Below, in pieces: positions 2,641 through 48,726 of a DNA stretch of 64,000 nucleotides. Position 1 is the first letter of the stretch; each line of letters opens with the position of its first letter. The stretch spans positions 8,319 through 72,318 of the forward strand of contig CAYRGD010000004.1 in assembly GCA_964423885.1 (NCBI GenBank), read 5' to 3'. Position numbers and translations under genes: made by a program. The DNA comes from an uncultured Candidatus Saccharibacteria bacterium (GTDB lineage: Bacteria; Patescibacteriota; UBA1384; JACPKC01). The notes below the pieces were generated by a model. It had not been told where the DNA came from. It saw nothing but the letters and a program-made list of their open reading frames with translations, and searched no databases.

Positions 2641-3645
2641 ATGAGGATCGCGATCGACGTGACCGAGGCGGCGGGCGGGACGCTGCTGCGTGCCCTGGAA
2701 CGGGCCGACCGCCGGCACGAGTTCGTGGGTTTGGTGCCAGTCCGGCCGACACGGACGCCGCTTGGCCGGTGGTGGTGGGAACAGGTCGGGCTGCCGACCG
2801 CCGCGCGTCGGGCCGGGGCGGAAGTGCTCCACCAGCCGGCCGGGTCGCCGCCACGCTTTCGGGGGTGGCGGGGGGTCGGGAGGGTCGACGACCCGCGGGA
2901 CCGCCGGCGGACGAGGTTTATCCCGTTCGCGGCCCAGACGGTCGTCCGGTCCGAGGCGGCCAAGGACGTGCTTGCCAGCCGGGCCACGTACCTTCCTGCC
3001 AGGGTACGCGTGGTCTACGCGGCAACCGACGCTGGTGCCGCCCACGTCCGTGCGCCCGAGCTCGCGCGGCGGACGCGGGAACGCTACGGCCTGGGCGAGC
3101 GCTACCTCTTATCCCCCGACCCGGCCGCGATCCACGACGCGGACTTCCTGCTCCGTGTCTTCGTCGGCGTCCGCACGAAAGTCCGGCGGCCGGTGACGCT
3201 CGCGCTCCGGGTCGACGGCGCTCGGGCGCTCGGGCCGCTCCTGGAACGGATCCGTGACCTCGGCCTCGCCCACGTGGTGAGGCTCCTGCCTGCCGTGCCC
3301 GACCGCGACTGGCCGCTCATCCTGGCCGGTGCCGCGGCCGCGGTCTTTCCTCGGCGCGACGATCTGGTTGCCAGCGCGCCGCTCGCCGTGCTGGCGTACG
3401 GCCTGCCGACGGTCGCTGCCGCTGCGGGCGCGATCCCCGAGCTCGTGGGGCCGGCCGCCATCCTCGTGCCGCCCGACGACGCGGCCGCCTGGACGAAGGC
3501 GCTCGCCGGACTCATGGCCGACGCGGCGCTCCGGCGCGACTACGCCGGGCGGGCGGCCAAGCAGGCCCGGCGGTTCAGTTGGGAGCGGGCCGCGCGCGAG
3601 ACGGTGCGCGTCTATGAGCGGGCGCTACGTGACCGTCGGCCCTAG
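2641..3645 (+). CDS. Glycosyltransferase family 4 (GT1-fold, RfaG-like)
   Basis: MRIAIDV... start. C-terminal GT4 signature (retaining GT-B C-domain with a conserved E in ...GLPTVAAAAGAIPELV...). TATAGT 9 nt upstream of the ATG. Confidence 0.75.
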   Translation: MRIAIDVTEAAGGTLLRALERADRRHEFVGLVPVRPTRTPLGRWWWEQVGLPTAARRAGAEVLHQPAGSPPRFRGWRGVGRVDDPRDRRRTRFIPFAAQTVVRSEAAKDVLASRATYLPARVRVVYAATDAGAAHVRAPELARRTRERYGLGERYLLSPDPAAIHDADFLLRVFVGVRTKVRRPVTLALRVDGARALGPLLERIRDLGLAHVVRLLPAVPDRDWPLILAGAAAAVFPRRDDLVASAPLAVLAYGLPTVAAAAGAIPELVGPAAILVPPDDAAAWTKALAGLMADAALRRDYAGRAAKQARRFSWERAARETVRVYERALRDRRP

Positions 3646-3675
3646 CGCGGCAGCCTATCCGGTATACTGGTGCCG

Positions 3676-4971
3676 ATGTCCATAAAGAGCACCCTCAAGG
3701 CCGCTGTCCCGCCGGGACTCCGCGACGCCTACCACCGTGCGCAGGCGTCGGTTGCCGCGGCAGCCTACGGGAATCCCGCTGCCCGGCTCCAGGTCTACGG
3801 CGTGACTGGGACGAACGGCAAGACCACGACCTGCTTCTTCCTCCGCTCGATCCTGACGGCCGCGCGGCGCCAGGCCGGCCTCGCGACGACGGTCCGCCTG
3901 TCCGACGGCGTCCACGACGACCGCAACGACCGCAAGATGACGACCATGCCGGCCCGTGACCTGCAGGCGCTGCTCCGCCGGATGGTGGGTGCCGGCAGCA
4001 CGGCCGCCGTGCTCGAGGTGACCTCGCACGCGCTCGCGCAGCACCGGGTGGCCGGAATCCCGTTCGACACGGTGGTGTTCACGAACCTGACCCACGACCA
4101 CCTCGATTACCACAAGACACCCGAGGCCTACCAAGCCGCCAAGGAACGCCTGTTCGCCCTGCCGCACCGCGTGAGCGTGGTCAACGCCGACGACCCGCGC
4201 GGTGCTGCCTTCCTCGCCTATCCGGCGGCACGGCGGCTGACCTTTTCGCTCACCCAGGACGCCGACGTGCGGGCGAGCGCGATCCGCGCCGACGGCGCCG
4301 GGACGCGCTTCACGCTCGCGGTTGCCGGCGAGGAGCAGCCGGTCCGGCTCCGGTTGCCCGGCCGGTTCAACGTGGCCAACGCCGTAGCCGCTGCAGCGGC
4401 AGCGCACGGCAGCAACATCCCACTTATGACGATCGTCGCCGGGCTCGAAGCGGTCGGGGCAGTGCCGGGCCGGCTCGAGCCGATCGAGGCCGGGCAGCCG
4501 TTCCGCGTGCTCATCGACTACGCCCACACCCCGGACGCCTTGAAGCAGCTGTTCGAGACGGTAAAGCCCGGCACGACGGGCCGGCTGATCCATGTGGGCG
4601 GCGCGACCGGCAACCGCGACCGCACCAAGCGGCCGCTTCTGGGCGCCATTGCGGCCCAGTTCGCCGACATCCTTATCGTGACGAACGAGGATCCCGACGA
4701 TGAGGATCCGCGCGCGATCATCGACGCTGTCGTCGAGGGTGTCCGCCGGGGCGCGGGGACGCGCAAGCGGCTCGTCAAGCACGAGAACTTTTTCGTGATC
4801 GAGGACCGGGCCGAGGCGATCCGCACCGCGTTGCGTCTGGCCGAGCCGGGCGACACGGTGCTCGTGACCGGCAAGGGCGACGAGTCGGCCATGATGGTGC
4901 GCGGCCGGCTGACGCCGTATTCCGACCGTGAGACGATCCTGGCGGCGCTTACAGGACAAGGGCAGCGATAA
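3676..4971 (+). CDS. murE: UDP-N-acetylmuramoyl-L-alanyl-D-glutamate--2,6-diaminopimelate (or L-Lys) ligase MurE with a short N-terminal domain. An alternative GTG start lies at 3670.
   Basis: P-loop GTNGKTT, DYAHTPDAL, a C-terminal ...NEDPDDEDPRAI (DNPR-like motif) and a GKGDE box, collinear with E. coli MurE. Confidence 0.75.
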   Translation: MSIKSTLKAAVPPGLRDAYHRAQASVAAAAYGNPAARLQVYGVTGTNGKTTTCFFLRSILTAARRQAGLATTVRLSDGVHDDRNDRKMTTMPARDLQALLRRMVGAGSTAAVLEVTSHALAQHRVAGIPFDTVVFTNLTHDHLDYHKTPEAYQAAKERLFALPHRVSVVNADDPRGAAFLAYPAARRLTFSLTQDADVRASAIRADGAGTRFTLAVAGEEQPVRLRLPGRFNVANAVAAAAAAHGSNIPLMTIVAGLEAVGAVPGRLEPIEAGQPFRVLIDYAHTPDALKQLFETVKPGTTGRLIHVGGATGNRDRTKRPLLGAIAAQFADILIVTNEDPDDEDPRAIIDAVVEGVRRGAGTRKRLVKHENFFVIEDRAEAIRTALRLAEPGDTVLVTGKGDESAMMVRGRLTPYSDRETILAALTGQGQR

Positions 4972-7590: not shown

Positions 7591-8143
7591 GTGCGAGGAC
7601 CGTCAGCGCGACGCCGAGCGTGACGAGGAGCAGCGAGGGGCGGAGCGCTTGCACCGAGACATCCGAAAAGAGCAGGCCGTGCTGGGCGGTCGGGAAGGCG
7701 AGGCTGGCGGTCTTGACCGCCTCGGCCAAGGAACGGGCCTCGGCTTCGGATGGCCGCGAGACGGCGATCGTGGCGCTGTTGGCCTGTTCGGTCGTGACCG
7801 CGGCGAAGGTCTTGGCGAGCTCGGCGGCCGAACCGGTCGGCGCCGTCAGGCCGGCAGCGGCGAAGGTCGCCTGCACCGTGGCCGGTTCGCCCAGCCAGGC
7901 CAGGTAGTTGCTCTTCTCGCGGTTGGCCGCCAAGAGCGCGTAGTAGCTGTCATACAGATAAAAGGGCGTCGTTTCCTGTTGCAAGGGCGAGTTCGTCGCG
8001 AAGGTGGCCGTGACGACGCCTTGGTAGGTAGGCGGCAGGGCCCGGGCTGTGCCGAGGCCGAGGAGCGTGCCCGCGACGGCCGCGCCGAGCCACACGGGCG
8101 CGAAACGGCGGACGAACTGGTCGGCGTGGTCGGTAGGCTGCAT
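7526..8143 (-). CDS. Possible short Wzz-like polysaccharide co-polymerase (TM, periplasmic domain, TM)
   Basis: N- and C-terminal hydrophobic segments flank an Ala/Thr-rich domain of about 150 aa. Convergent 65-nt overlap with the preceding gene. Confidence 0.35.
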   Translation of the reverse strand: MQPTDHADQFVRRFAPVWLGAAVAGTLLGLGTARALPPTYQGVVTATFATNSPLQQETTPFYLYDSYYALLAANREKSNYLAWLGEPATVQATFAAAGLTAPTGSAAELAKTFAAVTTEQANSATIAVSRPSEAEARSLAEAVKTASLAFPTAQHGLLFSDVSVQALRPSLLLVTLGVALTVLALTFLATFALDRFAPRPAQQAD

Positions 8144-30682: not shown

Positions 30683-30699
30683 CGGTACGATCAGGGCCT

Positions 30700-32430
30700 A
30701 TGGCGCTCTACCGGACGTACCGGCCGCAGACCTTCGGGTCGGTGGTTGGCCAACCCCATGTCAAACGGACGCTCGCGAACGCGCTGGCGCATGATTTGGT
30801 GGCCCACGCCTACCTCTTCGCCGGCCCGCGCGGGAGCGGTAAGACGTCGGTGGCGCGGATCCTCGCCATGGCGGTCAACTGCTCGCAGCGCGCCGCGGGC
30901 GACAGCGAGCCGTGCGGCAACTGCGAGAGCTGCATCGGCATCCGCGACGGCCACAGCCTGGCCGTGGTCGAGATCGACGCGGCCAGCAACCGCGGTATCG
31001 ACGAGATCCGGGCGCTCCGGGAAACGATCCGGCTGTCGCCGGGCGCCGGGGTGGCCCGCAAGGTCTACATCATCGACGAGGTCCACATGCTGACCACGCC
31101 GGCCTTCAACGCGCTCTTGAAAACCCTCGAAGAGCCGCCGGCACATGCGCTGTTCATCCTGGCGACGACCGAACTCAATGCCGTGCCCGAGACGATCGTC
31201 TCGCGGGTGCAGCACTTCTCGTTCCGTCGGGCGACGCCAGCGGATATCCGGACGCACCTTGCCTGGGTAGCTGGCCAGGAGCAGCTCGCGATCGACGATG
31301 ACGCGCTTGAACTCGTTGCCGCCCACGCCGACGGCGCCTTCCGCGACGCCCTGTCGCTGCTGGGGCAGCTCCAGGCGACCGGCGACAACCCCGTCACGGC
31401 CGATACGGTCCGGGTCGTACTCGGGATCGCTCCGGCCGACGAACTGGCCCGGCTCATCGTCGCGAGCCTTGCGGGCGACGTGGCCGTTGTCGAGGCGGGA
31501 TTCGCGGCTGCGGCCGAACGGGGCGACGACCCCGCCGCGTTCATCGACGAGCTCGTCCTACTCCTGCGGGCGCTGCTGTGGCGTGCCTACGGCCTGGCGG
31601 ACGTGTCGGCGGTCCCGGCCGCGCTTACGGCCCTTACGACTTCGCCGGCCGCGCTTACGGCACGGATCGAGGCGCTTCTCACTGCCAAGCAGCAGTTACG
31701 CTGGTCGCCGCTGCCCTTCCTGCCGCTCGAGCTCGCGCTCCTGCCGCAGGATACCGCCCCGGCGGTGCCCACCCCACCTGGGCCCGCTGCCGTCCCAACT
31801 GCGCTGCCCGTGCCCGCTCCGACGATGCCAGTACCCGTCCCGGTTCCGCCGCCAGTAGCTGCGCCGGTAGCCTCGTCGCCCGAGCCTGCTCCCGCTCCGG
31901 CTGCCCCCATCCCTGCACCGGCCCCGCCTCCAGCGGCCGAGCCGGCACCACTCCCCGACCCGCCGGTCGTCGCGCAGGTCGCCGCGGAAACGGCCGAGGT
32001 GCAGCCGTTCGACCCCAACCTCGACCTGGGTGAGACCTGGAAGCAGGTAGTCGCGAAGATGCAGGCCACCAACGCCTCGCTCGCCGCGCTCCTCAAGGCC
32101 TCGACGCTCATCGCGGCCAGCCCGGACGAGGCGGTGATCGGCGTGCCGTTCACCTTCTACGCCGACCGGATCACTGATCGGAAGAACGCCGTACTCCTGG
32201 CCGATATCCTGATCGGCTACGGCATCCGCGGCTCGGTCCGGTGCGAGCTGTCCGGCCAGGCGGTCGTCCATGAAATCCCGGCGCCGAGCCCGTCGCCTGC
32301 CCCGACGCCGCCTCCGCCCGCGGCGGTACTGCCGCCCCCGATGCCCGCTGCCCCGGCCGCGCCCCGCGACCTGGCTACGGTCGAGTCCGACGTCCGCGAG
32401 ATCTTCGGCGTCGTGGAGCAGGGGGCATAA
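30700..32430 (+). CDS. dnaX: DNA polymerase III subunit gamma/tau
   Basis: GPRGSGKTS Walker A, a C-x-C Zn module (CGNCESC), SRC motif (TIVSRVQ) and a Pro/Ala-rich tau linker. Confidence 0.9.
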   Translation: MALYRTYRPQTFGSVVGQPHVKRTLANALAHDLVAHAYLFAGPRGSGKTSVARILAMAVNCSQRAAGDSEPCGNCESCIGIRDGHSLAVVEIDAASNRGIDEIRALRETIRLSPGAGVARKVYIIDEVHMLTTPAFNALLKTLEEPPAHALFILATTELNAVPETIVSRVQHFSFRRATPADIRTHLAWVAGQEQLAIDDDALELVAAHADGAFRDALSLLGQLQATGDNPVTADTVRVVLGIAPADELARLIVASLAGDVAVVEAGFAAAAERGDDPAAFIDELVLLLRALLWRAYGLADVSAVPAALTALTTSPAALTARIEALLTAKQQLRWSPLPFLPLELALLPQDTAPAVPTPPGPAAVPTALPVPAPTMPVPVPVPPPVAAPVASSPEPAPAPAAPIPAPAPPPAAEPAPLPDPPVVAQVAAETAEVQPFDPNLDLGETWKQVVAKMQATNASLAALLKASTLIAASPDEAVIGVPFTFYADRITDRKNAVLLADILIGYGIRGSVRCELSGQAVVHEIPAPSPSPAPTPPPPAAVLPPPMPAAPAAPRDLATVESDVREIFGVVEQGA

Positions 32431-33901: not shown

Positions 33902-35761
33902 ATGCCTGCGGACGCTGCCGTATCACCGATTTTGGAATCCCTGAACCCCGAGCAGCGGGCAGCGGCCGCCCATACCGACGGGCCGGTGCTCATTCTGGCC
34001 GGGGCAGGCTCGGGCAAGACGAAGACACTCACCCACCGCATCGCCTACCTAGTGGAACGCGGGGTCGCCCCGTACCACATCCTGGCGGTCACGTTCACCA
34101 ATAAGGCCGCCGGCGAGCTGCGCGAGCGGCTGACCGCCTTGGCGGGCGGTGTGTCGTTCCCGTGGGTCGGCACGTTCCATTCGGTCTGCGTCCGGATCCT
34201 GCGGCGCGAGATCGGCCACCTGGGCTACGAGCCGGGGTTCACGATCTACGACTCGAGCGACAGCCTCAACCTGGTCAAGCAGGCGATGGCCGAGCTCCAC
34301 ATCGATCCCAAGCAGACCAACCCGCGCACGATCCAGCACATGATCTCGGGCGCGAAGAACGAGCTTATCGGCCCCGTGCAGTACGCCAACCGGGCCGAGG
34401 GCTACGCCATGGAACAGACGGCCAAGGTCTACGAACGCTACCAGGCGGCCCTGAAGCGTGCCAACGCGGCCGACTTCGACGATCTGCTTGGGCTCACCGT
34501 GCGGCTGTTCCAGGAACATCCGCAGGTGCTCGCGGACTACCGCGAGAAGTTCAAGCACATCCTCATCGACGAGTACCAGGACACGAACCAGGTTCAGTAC
34601 CTGTTCGTGAAATTGCTGGGGAACCACGGCAACATCTGCGTGGTCGGCGACGACTACCAGGCGATCTACGGCTGGCGCGGCGCGAACTTCCGCAACATCT
34701 TGAACTTCGAACGCGACTGGCCCGAGACCACCACCGTCAAGCTCGAACAGAACTACCGGTCGACGCAGACGATCTTGGACGCGGCCGACGCGGTCATCAA
34801 GCACAACGCCCAGCGGACCGACAAGTCCCTGTGGACCGACCGGGGACAGGGCAGTCCGGTATCCGTCTACGAGGCGCTCGACGCGGTCGACGAGGCGGAT
34901 TTCCTGGTGACCGAGATCATGAGCCTGCGCCGTGAGTTCCCGAGCCTCAACCAATTCGCGGTGCTGTACCGCACCAACGCCCAGTCGCGCCTGCTCGAAG
35001 AGACGTTCCTGAAGCGCGAGCTGCCGTACCGCCTGGTCGGCGCGGTCCAGTTCTACGAGCGGAAGGAAATCAAGGACGTGCTCGCGTACCTCCGGGCGGT
35101 CGCCAACCCGACCGACCTGATTGCGTTCGAGCGCTCAGCCGGGGCGCCCAGCCGCGGGATCGGTAAGAAGGCGCTCGAACAGGTGCGGGTGCTGGGTATC
35201 GAGGCCGCCGCGGCCACGAATGCCAAGGTCAAGGCGTTCGCGGCGCTGCTTGCCGAGTTCCGCCTGTTCGCGACCGCCCATTCGGTCAACGACCTCATCG
35301 AGGAGGTGGCGGTGCGCTCGGGCTACCGCGACGCGTTGCTCGACGGCTCCGACGAGGGCGAGGGGCGGTGGGAGAACGTCAAGGAGTTGAAGTCGGTCGG
35401 CGAGGGGTATATCAGCCTGAACGAATTCCTCGAGGCGACCAGTCTGGTGGCGGATACCGACGCTTACGACCCGAGCCACGAGGCCGTGACGCTCATGACG
35501 CTCCACAACGCCAAGGGGCTCGAGTTCCCGGTGGTGTTCGTGGTCGGCATGGAGGAAAGCATCTTCCCGCACTCGCGGGCATTGACCGACCCGGCCCAGA
35601 TGGAAGAGGAGCGGCGGCTGTGCTACGTGGGCATGACGCGGGCCAAGGACCGGCTCTACCTGCTGCACGCCAACTCGCGGATCCTGTACGGCGGGATCCA
35701 GGCCAACATCCCGTCGCGGTTCCTGGGCGAGTTCCCGGCCCACCTCCGAGAGAAGCTGTAA
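33902..35761 (+). CDS. pcrA: ATP-dependent DNA helicase PcrA/UvrD (short, 619 aa)
   Basis: GAGSGKTKTLTHRIAYL motif I, DEYQDTN motif II, ..YRS.. and the C-terminal VTLMTLHNAKGLEFPVVF motif. Confidence 0.85.
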   Translation: MPADAAVSPILESLNPEQRAAAAHTDGPVLILAGAGSGKTKTLTHRIAYLVERGVAPYHILAVTFTNKAAGELRERLTALAGGVSFPWVGTFHSVCVRILRREIGHLGYEPGFTIYDSSDSLNLVKQAMAELHIDPKQTNPRTIQHMISGAKNELIGPVQYANRAEGYAMEQTAKVYERYQAALKRANAADFDDLLGLTVRLFQEHPQVLADYREKFKHILIDEYQDTNQVQYLFVKLLGNHGNICVVGDDYQAIYGWRGANFRNILNFERDWPETTTVKLEQNYRSTQTILDAADAVIKHNAQRTDKSLWTDRGQGSPVSVYEALDAVDEADFLVTEIMSLRREFPSLNQFAVLYRTNAQSRLLEETFLKRELPYRLVGAVQFYERKEIKDVLAYLRAVANPTDLIAFERSAGAPSRGIGKKALEQVRVLGIEAAAATNAKVKAFAALLAEFRLFATAHSVNDLIEEVAVRSGYRDALLDGSDEGEGRWENVKELKSVGEGYISLNEFLEATSLVADTDAYDPSHEAVTLMTLHNAKGLEFPVVFVVGMEESIFPHSRALTDPAQMEEERRLCYVGMTRAKDRLYLLHANSRILYGGIQANIPSRFLGEFPAHLREKL

Positions 35762-35949
35762 TATCTGTGGAAAACTCACGACCGGAGAATGTGTACAGCT
35801 GCTCCAACAGGAGAGAATCGGAATCTTGACACGGTTCACGAACGGCGGTATGATGGACAGGCACATTGAAAACCGGAGCGCGAACACGCAGGGAGGGGTC
35901 CGGTGCAATCATTGGCTCATAACTTCCCGTTGTGAGTCATTTTTGTGCC

Positions 35950-36043
35950 GCAGCTGACGAACCAAGCTGCAGCGCAGTGTCTACCTCTGTAGACACCATC
36001 TGCCATCAAGGCAGATGTACACCACCAGTCGGCATCCGCCGAC
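35950..36043 (+). other. Cluster of four consecutive stem-loops in a low-GC, roughly 450-bp leader. Candidate cis-regulatory RNA or small RNA.
   Basis: Hairpins GCAGC/GCTGC (35950-35969), GTGTCTAC/GTAGACAC (35977-35996), CATCTGCC/GGCAGATG (35997-36017) and GTCGGC/GCCGAC (36028-36043). Confidence 0.35.
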
Positions 36044-36211
36044 ATCGAGTGGACGAACGCCAGCATCTGTTGAACGGGGGTACCTGTTCGGTGGATTCAA
36101 GTGCGGTCGGCCGCTTGCCAAGGGCTTTGGCATTTTGCACGTCACATATATACAACACACTATGGACGCTGCTCGCTAAGGCCCTTTTTTCGTGTGCTAT
36201 ACTCCCACCAT

Positions 36212-37186
36212 ATGTCAGCCCGACGGACGGTTGGACTGGGGCTCGTGGCGATCGCGTGCCTCACGGGCGCGCTCGTGCGGCTGCGCGGGCACGGGCAGGC
36301 GACGGCTGCGGTGTCGGCGGCAACGGGCCGCGTTGACGGCCGCGTCCTTGGGGCGTCCGTCCGGCATGTCGGCGGGGTCGACCACGCGGTCGAGCGCTAC
36401 GTGGCGCCGCCAGGGCCGACGACCGTCGCTACGCAGCTTGCCGCGCTCGGCGTTACGCTCTATCCCGAAGACCACTTCACCGCGATACCCGACCCGTCGT
36501 TCGGCGTGGGGAGCGAGATCGAACTCGTGCGGGCGAACGCCGTGACGATCGTCGACGCCAAACATCCGGCCACCTACCGCACCTGGGCCCCGACCGTCGA
36601 GGCGTTCTTGAACGAACGGCAGGTGACGCTCGGTGCCGACGACCGGCAGGATATCCCGAACGCGACGCCGGTGACAGCCGGGCTCACGGTCGCCATCACC
36701 CGGGTCGGGATGCGCGAGGTATTCGAGGACGAACCGATCGCCTTCGCGAGCAAGACCGAATCCGACGCGACCATGGAAAAAGGCACGTCGACGGTCGTGC
36801 AGGCCGGAAAGAACGGTGTCCGCACCAAAACCTACCGCATCACGTACGAGGACGGCGAGCAGGTGAGTAAGACATTGATCAAGAATGAGGTCGCAACGGC
36901 GCCGGTCGACCAGATTGCGCGCAGGGGCACAAAGGTATTGACCTACGGCAGCGGCGAGGCGACGTGGTACGCCTGGAAGCCGGGCGGCGCGGCCCACAAC
37001 ACCCTGCCGTTCGGCACCTGCGTCCACGTCGTGAGCGTGGCGAGCGGCAAATCCGTGGACGTCACCATCAACGACCGTGGGATCCAGGGGAGTGCGGTCA
37101 TCGACCTGGACAAGGCCGCCTTCGCCGCCATTGCGCCCTTGGGCGCTGGCCGGATCAACGTCCGGCTCGAGAAGTGCTACCCGTAA
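36212..37186 (+). CDS. YabE/RpfB-like cell-wall protein with G5 and C-terminal 3D (RlpA-like double-psi barrel) domains
   Basis: Signal anchor, then a G5-like VQAGKNGVRTKTYRITYEDGEQ and a C-terminal ..WYAWKPGGAAHNTLPFGTCVHVVS..VDVTINDRG. Extended -10 TGCTATACT 8 nt upstream of the ATG. Confidence 0.7.
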   Translation: MSARRTVGLGLVAIACLTGALVRLRGHGQATAAVSAATGRVDGRVLGASVRHVGGVDHAVERYVAPPGPTTVATQLAALGVTLYPEDHFTAIPDPSFGVGSEIELVRANAVTIVDAKHPATYRTWAPTVEAFLNERQVTLGADDRQDIPNATPVTAGLTVAITRVGMREVFEDEPIAFASKTESDATMEKGTSTVVQAGKNGVRTKTYRITYEDGEQVSKTLIKNEVATAPVDQIARRGTKVLTYGSGEATWYAWKPGGAAHNTLPFGTCVHVVSVASGKSVDVTINDRGIQGSAVIDLDKAAFAAIAPLGAGRINVRLEKCYP

Positions 37187-47051: not shown

Positions 47052-47102
47052 CTCGCGCACACCCGGGAGATCGGTAGCTCGGCAGTAGTGGAGTTGCTGC
47101 TG

Positions 47103-47131
47103 AAAAAATAAGAGAGACTCGAGTCTCTCTT
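47103..47131 (-). terminator. Terminator hairpin (perfect 22-bp palindrome AAGAGAGACTCGAGTCTCTCTT) with an A/T tract; serves the minus-strand gene
   Basis: Palindrome at 47110-47131 preceded by AAAAAATA, which is a U-tract on the minus strand. Confidence 0.6.
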
Positions 47132-47144
47132 CTCTGGTCCGAAC

Positions 47145-47795
47145 TCATGTACCCTGGATCGCAATCGTGACTAATCGGTACCCAGCTCCGTTGGCTCGTT
47201 TGGAAGGCCCTTTTTTACAGATACCTGCGTTGCAGAGCTTTTTTATCTGACCCAAGACGGTGGTCCGTTTTATTCCGATACCACGAGCAAGCTCTGCCGA
47301 GCTTACGAGCTTGGATTGCGTTGATAGGTATTCCACGATCTCTTTTGAGATATGGAACGTGCCGAATCGTGGCAATCCGGATAAGGGGTGCGGGATATAC
47401 GACGCTTCCGCTTCGATCTCGATGCCGAGCAACGAAAATTGATTCGGGGTGCAGTTCCGGTCAATCAATAGTATTTGTCCAAGTGTATGGAGAGCGCGTC
47501 CAAGGCTGTCGGTAACGACCTCGCTTGCGTCCTGAACAATGATCGGGATTCTCCGTTCGATACTCGATTGACTGAGTCGCAGAAGATTGACTACCAGATG
47601 ATCCGCATAGCGCGAGGACAAGCAGTCGACTTGCTTGAAGTTGAGATAGAGGGCTTGATCTGTTGCTAACGCTTTCATATGCCGTTCCTGAATGCCTGGC
47701 ATGATCGTAGAAAGCGTGATATCTGACGGTGTTCTTCGCTTGGCGGGATCAGCATAGATCCCCTCCGGCAAGAGGAATACAATTTCATCAACCAT
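47145..47795 (-). CDS. Hypothetical regulator: N-terminal alpha/beta domain (..LSSRYADHLVVNLL.., possibly STAS-like/DUF4325-like) plus a C-terminal winged-helix HTH
   Basis: C-terminal ..SSAELARGIGIKRTTVLGQIKKLCNAGICKK....GYRL (wHTH). Low GC. Paralog of 47995..48642. Confidence 0.5.
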   Translation of the reverse strand: MVDEIVFLLPEGIYADPAKRRTPSDITLSTIMPGIQERHMKALATDQALYLNFKQVDCLSSRYADHLVVNLLRLSQSSIERRIPIIVQDASEVVTDSLGRALHTLGQILLIDRNCTPNQFSLLGIEIEAEASYIPHPLSGLPRFGTFHISKEIVEYLSTQSKLVSSAELARGIGIKRTTVLGQIKKLCNAGICKKGPSKRANGAGYRLVTIAIQGT

Positions 47796-47882
47796 TCGAT
47801 TCGCTCCAAATTAACGTGCTCGAACCTTGATTCGCCTGGGTGAGTATAGCGACTTGGTGTATGTCCAACAACGGTACATTTT

Positions 47883-47949
47883 CTTAAGAAAAACGGCCCC
47901 ATGCTTAAGGGGAGCAGTCGACAGTCGCTACGACGTATGTTGAATTCAA
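47883..47949. promoter_or_regulatory. Palindrome-rich divergent promoter/operator region between the paralogous wHTH genes
   Basis: CTTAAG x2 (47883-47888, 47904-47909), GTCGAC (47917-47922) and the 10-bp palindrome TTGAATTCAA (47940-47949). Confidence 0.4.
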
Positions 47950-47994
47950 TCCAAGCTAGCCTATAGCTGAGTTTCTTTTACAAAGGATGATGAA

Positions 47995-48642
47995 ATGGAA
48001 GAACAGGACACCGAAGCGAGTCCTGACGCTGAAGAGGATTACTTGCAGTACTCCTTTCCCGTCGGGGCCTATCTCGATACCCGGATCCCTAGTGAACAGC
48101 CCGGACGGCCTTCACCGATTGCCGCCATCGATTTGGCCCAAGCTATCTACGGGTGTCTTTCCGTAGCAGCGAAGAACGGCCATTGGGCGTTGCACTTGGA
48201 TGTAAGCGGTGTGGACTATATGAGCAGCCGCTATGCAACGTGGCTGGTTCGGAAGATTCTGAAAGCTACTTCGCATGATGAGGAATACCAACATATCCGC
48301 ATCGTAGTGACTGGGGCATCAGAATTAGTCTTAGAGCAGATCGAGGACTCGCTCGTTCTTGCAAAGCGCGTCGCATTCGCCGCAGCGCGGATATCGGACC
48401 AGCCCCGAATCCTTGGGGAGTTAGACGAAGTATTGCGAGCCTCGTTCGAGGCAATCCGGAACAACGGGCCTATGAACGCGCTGGAACTGTCGGAGATTCT
48501 TCGCGTACCAAGGCCGACAGCCGCGAACTACGTAGAGAGACTCTGCCGCTTTGGGCTGATCTCCAAAGTGAAATATCGGGGACGCAAAGGAGCCGCGTAC
48601 CGTTACTACTTCAGGTTGCCGGTTGCAGCCGGTAGCCAATGA
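47995..48642 (+). CDS. Hypothetical regulator, paralog of the divergent neighbour (N-terminal ..DYMSSRYATWLVRKIL.. domain plus C-terminal winged helix)
   Basis: C-terminal ..ALELSEILRVPRPTAANYVERLCRFGLISKV.YRGRKGAAYRY (wHTH). Low GC. Confidence 0.5.
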   Translation: MEEQDTEASPDAEEDYLQYSFPVGAYLDTRIPSEQPGRPSPIAAIDLAQAIYGCLSVAAKNGHWALHLDVSGVDYMSSRYATWLVRKILKATSHDEEYQHIRIVVTGASELVLEQIEDSLVLAKRVAFAAARISDQPRILGELDEVLRASFEAIRNNGPMNALELSEILRVPRPTAANYVERLCRFGLISKVKYRGRKGAAYRYYFRLPVAAGSQ

Positions 48643-48653
48643 CTATATCCCTT

Positions 48654-48682
48654 CGCCGCCCTCGGGCGGCGCTTTTCTTTTG
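48654..48682 (+). terminator. Rho-independent terminator: CGCCGCCC..GGGCGGCG followed by CTTTTCTTTTG
   Basis: 8-bp GC stem plus a T-tract after the stop at 48642. Confidence 0.7.
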
Positions 48683-48726
48683 TCTGGATTCCGTTAGGCT
48701 CAGGGCATAGGAAAGGAGCCTTGCCT

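Follow-up and report, generated by a model that had tools for sequence, protein, structure and literature searches.

Long structured RNAs of bacteria have often proved to be ribozymes or the cores of ribonucleoproteins. Among them, the OLE, raiA, ROOL, GOLLD and HEARO RNAs are free-standing and lineage-restricted, with lengths of ~300 nt or more and covarying structures. Here we describe a predicted non-coding RNA (ncRNA) of ~330 nt that is closest in kind to these. It lies in a 64,000-nt stretch of DNA from an uncultured Saccharibacteria bacterium (the whole stretch is called the window below), in the 450-nt gap (35762-36211) between uvrD and a yabE-type gene. Patescibacteria (the candidate phyla radiation, CPR), which include the Saccharibacteria, account for a large part of bacterial diversity and have very small genomes. 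To our knowledge, regulation in Patescibacteria is almost unexplored and no regulatory RNA has been characterised in this phylum; our literature searches found no description of a lineage-specific ncRNA of Patescibacteria.

The RNA differs from OLE, raiA, ROOL, GOLLD and HEARO in several respects. It has no sequence or structure match in Rfam 15, it is mainly a string of hairpins with three modules, in which no multi-way junctions or pseudoknots have been found so far, and, as sampled, it is confined to one clade of Saccharibacteria. The ydaO-yuaA riboswitches (RF00379), which bind c-di-AMP, are similar in that the RNA is structured, stands upstream of a yabE/rpf-type gene and ends in a stem and T-run. 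However, the RNA described here is more than twice as long, lacks the pseudo-two-fold aptamer architecture, has its own predicted promoter, and is separable from yabE. With 6S RNA and the mycobacterial Ms1 RNA it may share a high abundance and stability and has in common a strong housekeeping-type promoter, and Ms1 also measures ~300 nt; it is not folded as a rod whose central bubble mimics an open promoter, its ends are unpaired, and neither family matched in Rfam. In Caulobacter crescentus, the short base-pairing small RNA (sRNA) CcnA is encoded inside the origin and is tied to replication initiation and the cell cycle (PMC8959179). The regulatory logic of the present RNA may be closest to that of CcnA, as an ncRNA gene linked to the replication-initiation machinery, here by a DnaA-box-like site at the promoter. 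The two are not homologous; the present RNA is the larger and more structured one, it is not encoded at an origin, and a dependence on DnaA is presumptive.

Results

A probable RNA gene between uvrD and yabE

The analysis suggests, with a probability of roughly 80%, that the gap holds an independent gene for a structured ncRNA of ~330 nt, separate from yabE. Three hallmarks of a free-standing ncRNA gene were found at this locus: a conserved promoter of its own, a structure maintained by compensatory changes on one strand, and no fixed downstream gene. The sigma-70-type promoter matches the consensus at 11 of 12 positions, and 0.2 such sites would be expected by chance. Its TTGACA hexamer, 17-nt spacer and TAnnnT-like -10 hexamer are present in all ten homologues described below (the -10 hexamer is GATACT in L020). 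As modelled, the RNA most likely ends with the GC-rich stem H9 and the following T6 run. In nine of the ten homologues a GC-rich stem H9 is followed by a run of U5-6, the end reading CCC(U/C)nU5-6, yet a simple terminator scan made no call at this position. The positions of all elements are collected in Table 1.

When the 450-nt gap was folded, the + strand reached -179.8 kcal/mol, compared with -144.9 +/- 6.6 kcal/mol for dinucleotide shuffles (z = -5.3, with 0 of 100 shuffles as good), whereas the z score of the - strand was only -1.6. A first-pass annotation of this DNA had described the gap as a hairpin-dense leader of yabE in which the GC content falls to about half. Its four adjacent stem-loops packed into 35950-36043 are real. 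The GC content does drop, to 0.54 in 35762-36191 compared with 0.657 in the window, but a region of ~54% GC is no halving.

Table 1 Features of the predicted RNA gene and its flanks, in window coordinates
Feature	Position	Strand	Remark
uvrD, UvrD/PcrA helicase gene (UvrD-helicase/UvrD_C)	33902-35761	+	5' neighbour of the gap
DnaA-box-like 9-mer TGTGGAAAA	35766-35774	+	52 nt upstream of the -35 hexamer
Direct repeat, copy 1 TCACGACCGG	35776-35785	+	60 nt from copy 2
Direct repeat, copy 2 TCACGAACGG	35836-35845	+	
Sigma-70-type promoter, TTGACA-17 nt-TATGAT	35826-35854	+	predicted start near 35860
Predicted structured ncRNA, ~330 nt	~35860-36190	+	both ends predicted
Purine-rich Shine-Dalgarno-like motif GGGAGGGG	35891-35898	+	just 5' of H1; in nine of ten homologues, absent from L020
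5' domain	35901-35950	+	H1 enclosing H2
H1, CGGUGCAA with UUGUGCCG	35901-35908 with 35943-35950	+	
H2	35913-35923 with 35929-35939	+	enclosed by H1
Variable middle region, H3-H6	35951-36043	+	conserved linker CCACC at 36022-36026, before H6
H3, CAGCU/AGCUG	35951-35969	+	hairpin 1 of 4
H4, GUGUCUAC/GUAGACAC	35977-35996	+	hairpin 2 of 4
H5, CAUCUGCC/GGCAGAUG	35997-36017	+	hairpin 3 of 4
H6, GUCGGC/GCCGAC	36028-36043	+	hairpin 4 of 4
Long irregular hairpin H7/H8	36046-36117	+	
H7, CGAGUGG with CCGCUUG	36046-36052 with 36111-36117	+	
H8	36065-36078 with 36083-36096	+	GGUA loop
3' domain, predicted intrinsic terminator	36120-36190	+	H9 closing over H10, then T-run
H9, closing stem, AAGGGCUUUGG with CUAAGGCCCUU	36120-36130 with 36176-36186	+	
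H10	36141-36148 with 36161-36167	+	A/U-rich loop containing ACAA
T-run (T6)	36185-36190	+	
yabE extended -10 promoter	36195-36214	+	TG 36195-36196, TATACT 36198-36203, ATG 36212
yabE-type gene (DUF348-G5-DPBB)	36212-37186	+	3' neighbour of the gap

Homologues and selection

Homologues were collected from yabE-based loci, by look-ups of UvrD homologues, by a scan of metagenomes with a DNA pattern, and with two covariance models, R1 for the 5' domain and R2 for H7/H8. The closest yabE genes come from metagenome-assembled genomes of Patescibacteria/Saccharibacteria; an exact-protein look-up of the yabE product of the window returned no record. The first pattern scan gave 0 matches and a looser one gave 6. 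Two of these are real, namely L026 and L025, the latter being identical with L015; the other four are coding sequence matched by chance. With model R1, all homologues are recovered. Model R2 matches L020 at the expected place, and its matches in L026 and L033 are weak. In total, there are 10 distinct copies: those of the window, L001, L002, L015 (=L025), L004, L017, L020 (=L021), L026, L033 and L030 (=L031 and L032). In the sequences sampled so far, the RNA family occurs only in a single clade of ultrasmall Saccharibacteria (Patescibacteria/CPR). We regard it as a new family within a known general kind, the structured ncRNA genes of bacteria.

The identity of the RNA in the window to its relatives ranges from 0.61 to 0.90, compared with 0.23-0.68 at the third codon positions of uvrD. 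For L001, L004, L017 and L030, the RNA identities are 0.90, 0.70, 0.71 and 0.63, and those at the third codon positions of the adjacent uvrD are 0.68, 0.50, 0.42 and 0.23, respectively. The RNA thus diverges much more slowly than these positions, and its region is under purifying selection. There is no second copy in the window, and the element matches no plasmid or phage.

The gap contains two open reading frames (ORFs), of 54 and 43 codons. Neither these nor any other ORF in the gap is conserved among the homologues, and the indels between homologues are not multiples of three. A 10-codon GUG ORF located 3' of the Shine-Dalgarno-like motif was considered and rejected because it is not conserved. 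A short real ORF, named in the first-pass annotation as what might explain the region, is very unlikely to account for the gap.

Structure conserved on one strand

The ten RNAs fold far better than shuffled sequences on the sense strand, with z scores from -5.6 to -9.8 (-7.9 for the RNA of the window), and in nine of ten the sense z score is more negative than the antisense one. Independent folds of all ten RNAs yielded a common architecture, in which three modules are conserved: H1/H2, a nested hairpin on the 5' side; H7/H8, a long hairpin; and H9/H10, a Y-shaped domain on the 3' side. The modules are linked by a variable run of 2-4 simple hairpins, and the 5' tail is A-rich and varies in length among the homologues. 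The helix assignments are based on only ten sequences and cover the local helices H1-H10; they are provisional for the 5' 60 nt and for long-range pairing, pseudoknots included. Because MAFFT misregistered L004, L033 and L030 in H8 and in the 3' domain, anchored pair tables were used instead. Alignment A7, built with model R2, contained reverse-strand and false matches and was left out of the counts.

The H1/H2 module is paired in 97.4% of the cells over ten sequences, compared with 25-44% when the partners are slid. Seven pairs carry changes in both partners, and none of 500 shuffles attains the covariation score of the module. The scan had called H2 and the T-run behind it (35913-35945) a terminator. 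This candidate was rejected because the T-run pairs with CGGUGCAA to form H1 and is interrupted in L001. The H7/H8 module, over six sequences, is paired in 90% of the cells compared with 40-49% for slid partners, and here too 7 pairs have changed on both sides; 0 of 500 shuffles reach the percentage paired or the covariation score, and 21 of 500 reach the number of pairs changed on both sides. Sequence conservation is seen at the base of H8 (UCUUUU/GAAGGGA) and in its GNUA-type loop. In H9, the pair table contains compensatory changes at 5-6 positions, with successive positions alternating between UG/UA/CG, UA/CG/UG/GC and UA/AU/GC. Over six sequences, RNAalifold identified 19 pairs with compensatory change. 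The comparison of alignments that the first-pass annotation had suggested thus shows compensatory change in H1/H2, H7/H8 and H9.

The middle region is more variable. It holds 2-4 hairpins per homologue; L002 has no H4, and a larger insertion is present in L015. H6 persists among the homologues with differing sequences, namely GUCGGC/GCCGAC, CCAAC/GUUGG, GCCCC/GGGGC, CCUGUC/GGCAGG and CCGCC/GGCGG. Many of the conserved pairs of the RNA are G-U pairs, which would be A-C on the opposite strand. It is on the + strand only that compensatory and G-U changes preserve the helices.

We note that two further interactions were considered. A long-range helix between the 5' end and UUCAAGUGC, which appears in the minimum free energy fold of the window RNA, is found only in the window and L001 and conflicts with the covarying H7, and was rejected. 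A pseudoknot between the C-rich loop of H2 and GGGAGGGG could form, but a purine run of this kind would pair with almost any C/U 4-mer, so the complementarity is no evidence for it.

The RNA element moves independently of yabE

The element directly follows uvrD in six loci. In both L020 and L033, uvrD and the element are ~1.1 kb apart and DUF218-yabE comes next, and in L030 it stands between a GSDH gene and yabE. In L026, which has neither uvrD nor yabE at this locus, it is found between a short ORF, judged DUF167-like by sequence, and a convergent ORF. The next gene 3' of the RNA in L015 encodes a glycosyltransferase. Across the homologues, the downstream genes include yabE, DUF218, a glycosyltransferase gene, a gene for a HAMP protein and opposite-strand ORFs. 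In L001, a 291-residue opposite-strand gene (3037-3912, -) forms an insertion placed exactly between the T-run and the -10 box of yabE, and the last 17 nt before the ATG, including the -10 box, remain with yabE beyond this insertion of ~1 kb. These arrangements show that the RNA element moves independently of yabE.

It is worth noting that gene order seems to change particularly often in the region 3' of the RNA gene, as illustrated by the insertion in L001 relative to the window and L002. In L033, a TATAAT box and, immediately after it, a small GC hairpin with a T-run (GUCCCgauaGGGACGUUUUU) are found at 8075-8100, between the RNA gene and DUF218. DUF218 may thus have a short attenuator or leader of its own.

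yabE apparently has its own promoter and a leaderless mRNA

The first-pass annotation had noted an extended -10 element near the start of yabE and, from this position, proposed a separate upstream transcript. The element, TGcTATACT, does end 8 nt before the ATG, and its position is kept: in nine yabE loci (window, L001-L004, L017, L020, L030 and L033), there is a TGnTAnnnT box whose end lies 6-9 nt upstream of the ATG. No Shine-Dalgarno sequence was found upstream of yabE in these nine loci. Other genes of the clade have a canonical one (AAGGAGG), such as DUF218 in L020 and L033. Because the box is so close to the ATG and there is no Shine-Dalgarno sequence, yabE is apparently transcribed from its own promoter, outside the RNA gene, as a leaderless mRNA. 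A transcript reading through from the RNA gene would therefore give yabE no ribosome-binding site. The box is also present in L003, where yabE has no RNA upstream. The proposal of a separate upstream transcript, with an sRNA among the options, thus agrees with our results, while that of a yabE leader or a ydaO-type c-di-AMP riboswitch does not.

In the window, dnaX has the same layout (30683-30702), with TACGAT 8 nt before its ATG at 30700. Such sequences suggest that leaderless mRNAs may be common in this clade, in which case yabE and probably many other genes here would be expressed in this way.

A DnaA-box-like site and a direct repeat at the RNA promoter

Upstream of the RNA promoter there is a DnaA-box-like 9-mer, TGTGGAAAA. 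The DnaA box TTATCCACA reads TGTGGATAA in reverse complement, and the 9-mer departs from this at a single position. Nine of the ten homologues have such a 9-mer with no more than one mismatch 17-71 nt upstream of the -35 hexamer, and the match is perfect in L004, L017 and L033. In 140 kb of homologous loci, we counted 24 sites with at most one mismatch, 4 of them perfect; 10 and 3 of these, respectively, are at the RNA promoter, compared with a background rate of 0.022 per 130 nt in the same loci. The gap holds a single site even when two mismatches are allowed, and L004 has two sites. The box belongs to the RNA gene, as in L017, L020, L033 and L026 it is far from uvrD or uvrD is absent. Our tentative inference is that the RNA promoter is modulated by DnaA or by another protein that recognises a similar site.

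A direct repeat (TCACGAMCGG) is located in the same region. Copy 1 adjoins the box and copy 2 lies inside the promoter spacer. L001 and L002 keep the repeat, while L015, L033 and L026 keep part of it. It is possibly an operator for some regulator.

Searches for known RNA families

The first-pass annotation had called for a search against Rfam, naming ydaO among the candidates. A cmscan of the whole window against Rfam 15 at the gathering threshold returned three tRNAs only, and no family, ydaO included, matched the gap. The tRNAs form a cluster at 2321-2581 (Ser-GCT, Arg-GCG and Arg-CCG) and are the sole matches of Rfam and ARAGORN in the 64 kb; ARAGORN found no transfer-messenger RNA (tmRNA) in the window. 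With the threshold relaxed to E <= 10, a scan of 35600-36400 gave four matches at chance level, with no riboswitch, RNase P, signal recognition particle (SRP) RNA, 6S RNA or tmRNA among them. Seven homologous loci scanned at E <= 5 also gave chance-level matches only. The ydaO-yuaA covariance model had no match in the window, the gap or these seven loci. The cis linkage typical of ydaO is not seen either, as yabE has its own predicted promoter and the genes 3' of the RNA in L001 and L026 are on the opposite strand. SRP RNA was not detected in the gap upstream of dnaX.

Weighing the explanations

Several points weigh against an independent RNA gene. The RNA is known from sequence alone and its ends are predictions. 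There are only ten homologues, several of them closely related, so the covariation statistics are modest. The ~45 nt enclosed by H9 are unusual for an intrinsic terminator, and the T-run is missing from L033. No copy was found in the readable flanks of four related lineages (L018, L019, L029 and L003). The assignment of the DnaA box also comes from the sequence, and another DNA-binding protein could use the site. Moreover, in eight of ten loci the same strand carries yabE or DUF218-yabE no more than 1 kb downstream, which leaves a small probability of a cis effect by read-through. A first alternative is that the element is a cis-regulatory leader or riboswitch, for c-di-AMP or another ligand, which controls yabE and other envelope genes through H9 and the T-run as a terminator. 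yabE-type genes are an established context of ydaO riboswitches, the next same-strand genes in eight of ten loci are envelope-related (yabE, DUF218-yabE or a glycosyltransferase gene), and, on a reading of the sequence, the CCCUUUU strand could in principle pair with the G-rich motif near the 5' end, in competition with the 5' strand of H9. We nevertheless regard a riboswitch as unlikely: neither ydaO nor another riboswitch matched at E <= 10, the element is ~330 nt long and consists mostly of simple hairpins, the yabE promoter 8 nt from the ATG and the missing Shine-Dalgarno sequence would leave a read-through mRNA without a ribosome-binding site, and opposite-strand genes follow the element in L001 and L026. 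The suggestion of a leader in the first-pass annotation is set aside for the lack of an Rfam match, the promoter and stem/T-run end of the RNA itself, the separate promoter of yabE, and the differing downstream genes. The length, strong promoter, single copy and reduced genome would also fit a highly diverged housekeeping RNA (RNase P, SRP, 6S/Ms1-like or tmRNA) that the Rfam models miss in CPR. GGGAGGGGUCCGG bears a superficial likeness to GAGGAAAGUCCGG, a strand of RNase P helix P4, and SRP RNA genes often adjoin dnaX in Gram-positive bacteria, with none detected beside dnaX here. However, no RNase P, SRP, 6S or tmRNA model matched at E <= 10, ARAGORN reported no tmRNA, and there is neither an SRP helix-8 motif nor the 6S rod with its central bubble. 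In addition, CGGUGCAA pairs locally with UUGUGCCG 35 nt downstream and this pairing covaries, which leaves no long-range P4 to be formed by a GGAAAGUCCGG-like strand. We therefore consider a housekeeping RNA very unlikely.

The conserved DnaA-box-like site, the replication genes dnaX, dnaB and uvrD nearby, the lower GC content of the gap with an A/T-rich segment at H10, and a cumulative GC skew that flattens near 35 kb could point to a DNA-level element in place of an RNA gene, either an origin of replication or a site that titrates DnaA, with repeats able to form cruciforms. Such an element is highly improbable, as the helices are kept through G-U pairs that would be A-C mismatches on the opposite strand, folding differs between the strands, and a consensus promoter and a T-run bracket the element. 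The gap has a single box (at most two mismatches) and no DnaA-box cluster, no dnaA gene or motifs were found in the window, nearly all genes on both sides are on the + strand, and the GC skew merely flattens. An origin (oriC) was accordingly rejected, with one box, no dnaA and no switch in gene orientation. It is scarcely credible that the gap is a remnant of a mobile insertion, a small-protein gene, or the 3' untranslated region or terminator of uvrD, even though its GC content is below that of the flanks, it contains the 54- and 43-codon ORFs, and it directly follows uvrD in six loci. A mobile remnant, which the first-pass annotation had also considered, is at odds with the single copy in the window, the lack of plasmid or phage matches and the purifying selection. 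These readings are further contradicted by indels that are not multiples of three, the lack of a conserved ORF, the promoter of the element itself, the 1.1 kb between uvrD and the element in both L020 and L033, and the absence of uvrD in L026. An independent ncRNA gene thus remains the reading that we prefer.

Discussion

A conserved, strongly promoted RNA of ~330 nt that is kept in genomes of ~1 Mb is likely to have an important role. We tentatively suggest, from its sequence and context, that this RNA might act in trans, as a protein-binding scaffold or as a regulatory RNA, at a level controlled by DnaA. DnaA bound at the box upstream of the -35 hexamer would modulate the RNA promoter, the level of the RNA would thereby be tied to replication and cell-cycle status, and the RNA would then act in trans. 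We prefer binding of a protein in trans to a base-pairing sRNA or a riboswitch because the three modules are conserved and the hairpin array between them varies like a spacer. There is also no conserved single-stranded seed shared with a neighbouring mRNA and no repeated loop motif of the CsrB type, and the downstream context varies.

A more doubtful extension is that the RNA represents a new Saccharibacteria-specific class of large RNAs whose promoter is read by DnaA, and that it forms a ribonucleoprotein or acts as a regulator coupling replication status to cell growth or envelope remodelling. If true, it would be a new cell-cycle RNA in ultrasmall epibiotic bacteria. The conserved DnaA-box-like site provides a concrete, testable link to replication control. 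The present analysis also corrects an attractive but very probably wrong annotation, that of a c-di-AMP riboswitch before yabE.

Other observations in the window and its relatives

In L020 (4405-4900) and L022 (4402-4600), two of the more distant relatives, a different conserved non-coding stretch of ~190 nt is located directly 3' of uvrD. It contains a TTGAC-like box of its own and hairpins, followed by an ORF of 100 residues without a recorded Pfam match, and its sequence is unrelated to that of the ~330-nt RNA.

The window also contains a low-GC island at 47052-48720 (0.45-0.57 compared with 0.66). It holds two divergent paralogous genes of ~215 residues, at 47145-47795 (-) and 47995-48642 (+), related by BLASTP with E = 4e-8, and the densest group of weak DnaA-box-like sites in the window (4 in 500 nt, at most two mismatches). 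The proteins encoded upstream of yabE in L003 showed no relation to these paralogues.

Reverse-transcriptase genes (RVT_1) are found near the dnaX-dnaB-uvrD cluster in relatives, namely on the P0006 contig and in L030 (18372-19361). In L030, the reverse-transcriptase gene is followed by a gene for a VWA-domain protein. On the P0006 contig, it adjoins a bAvd gene, which suggests a diversity-generating retroelement.

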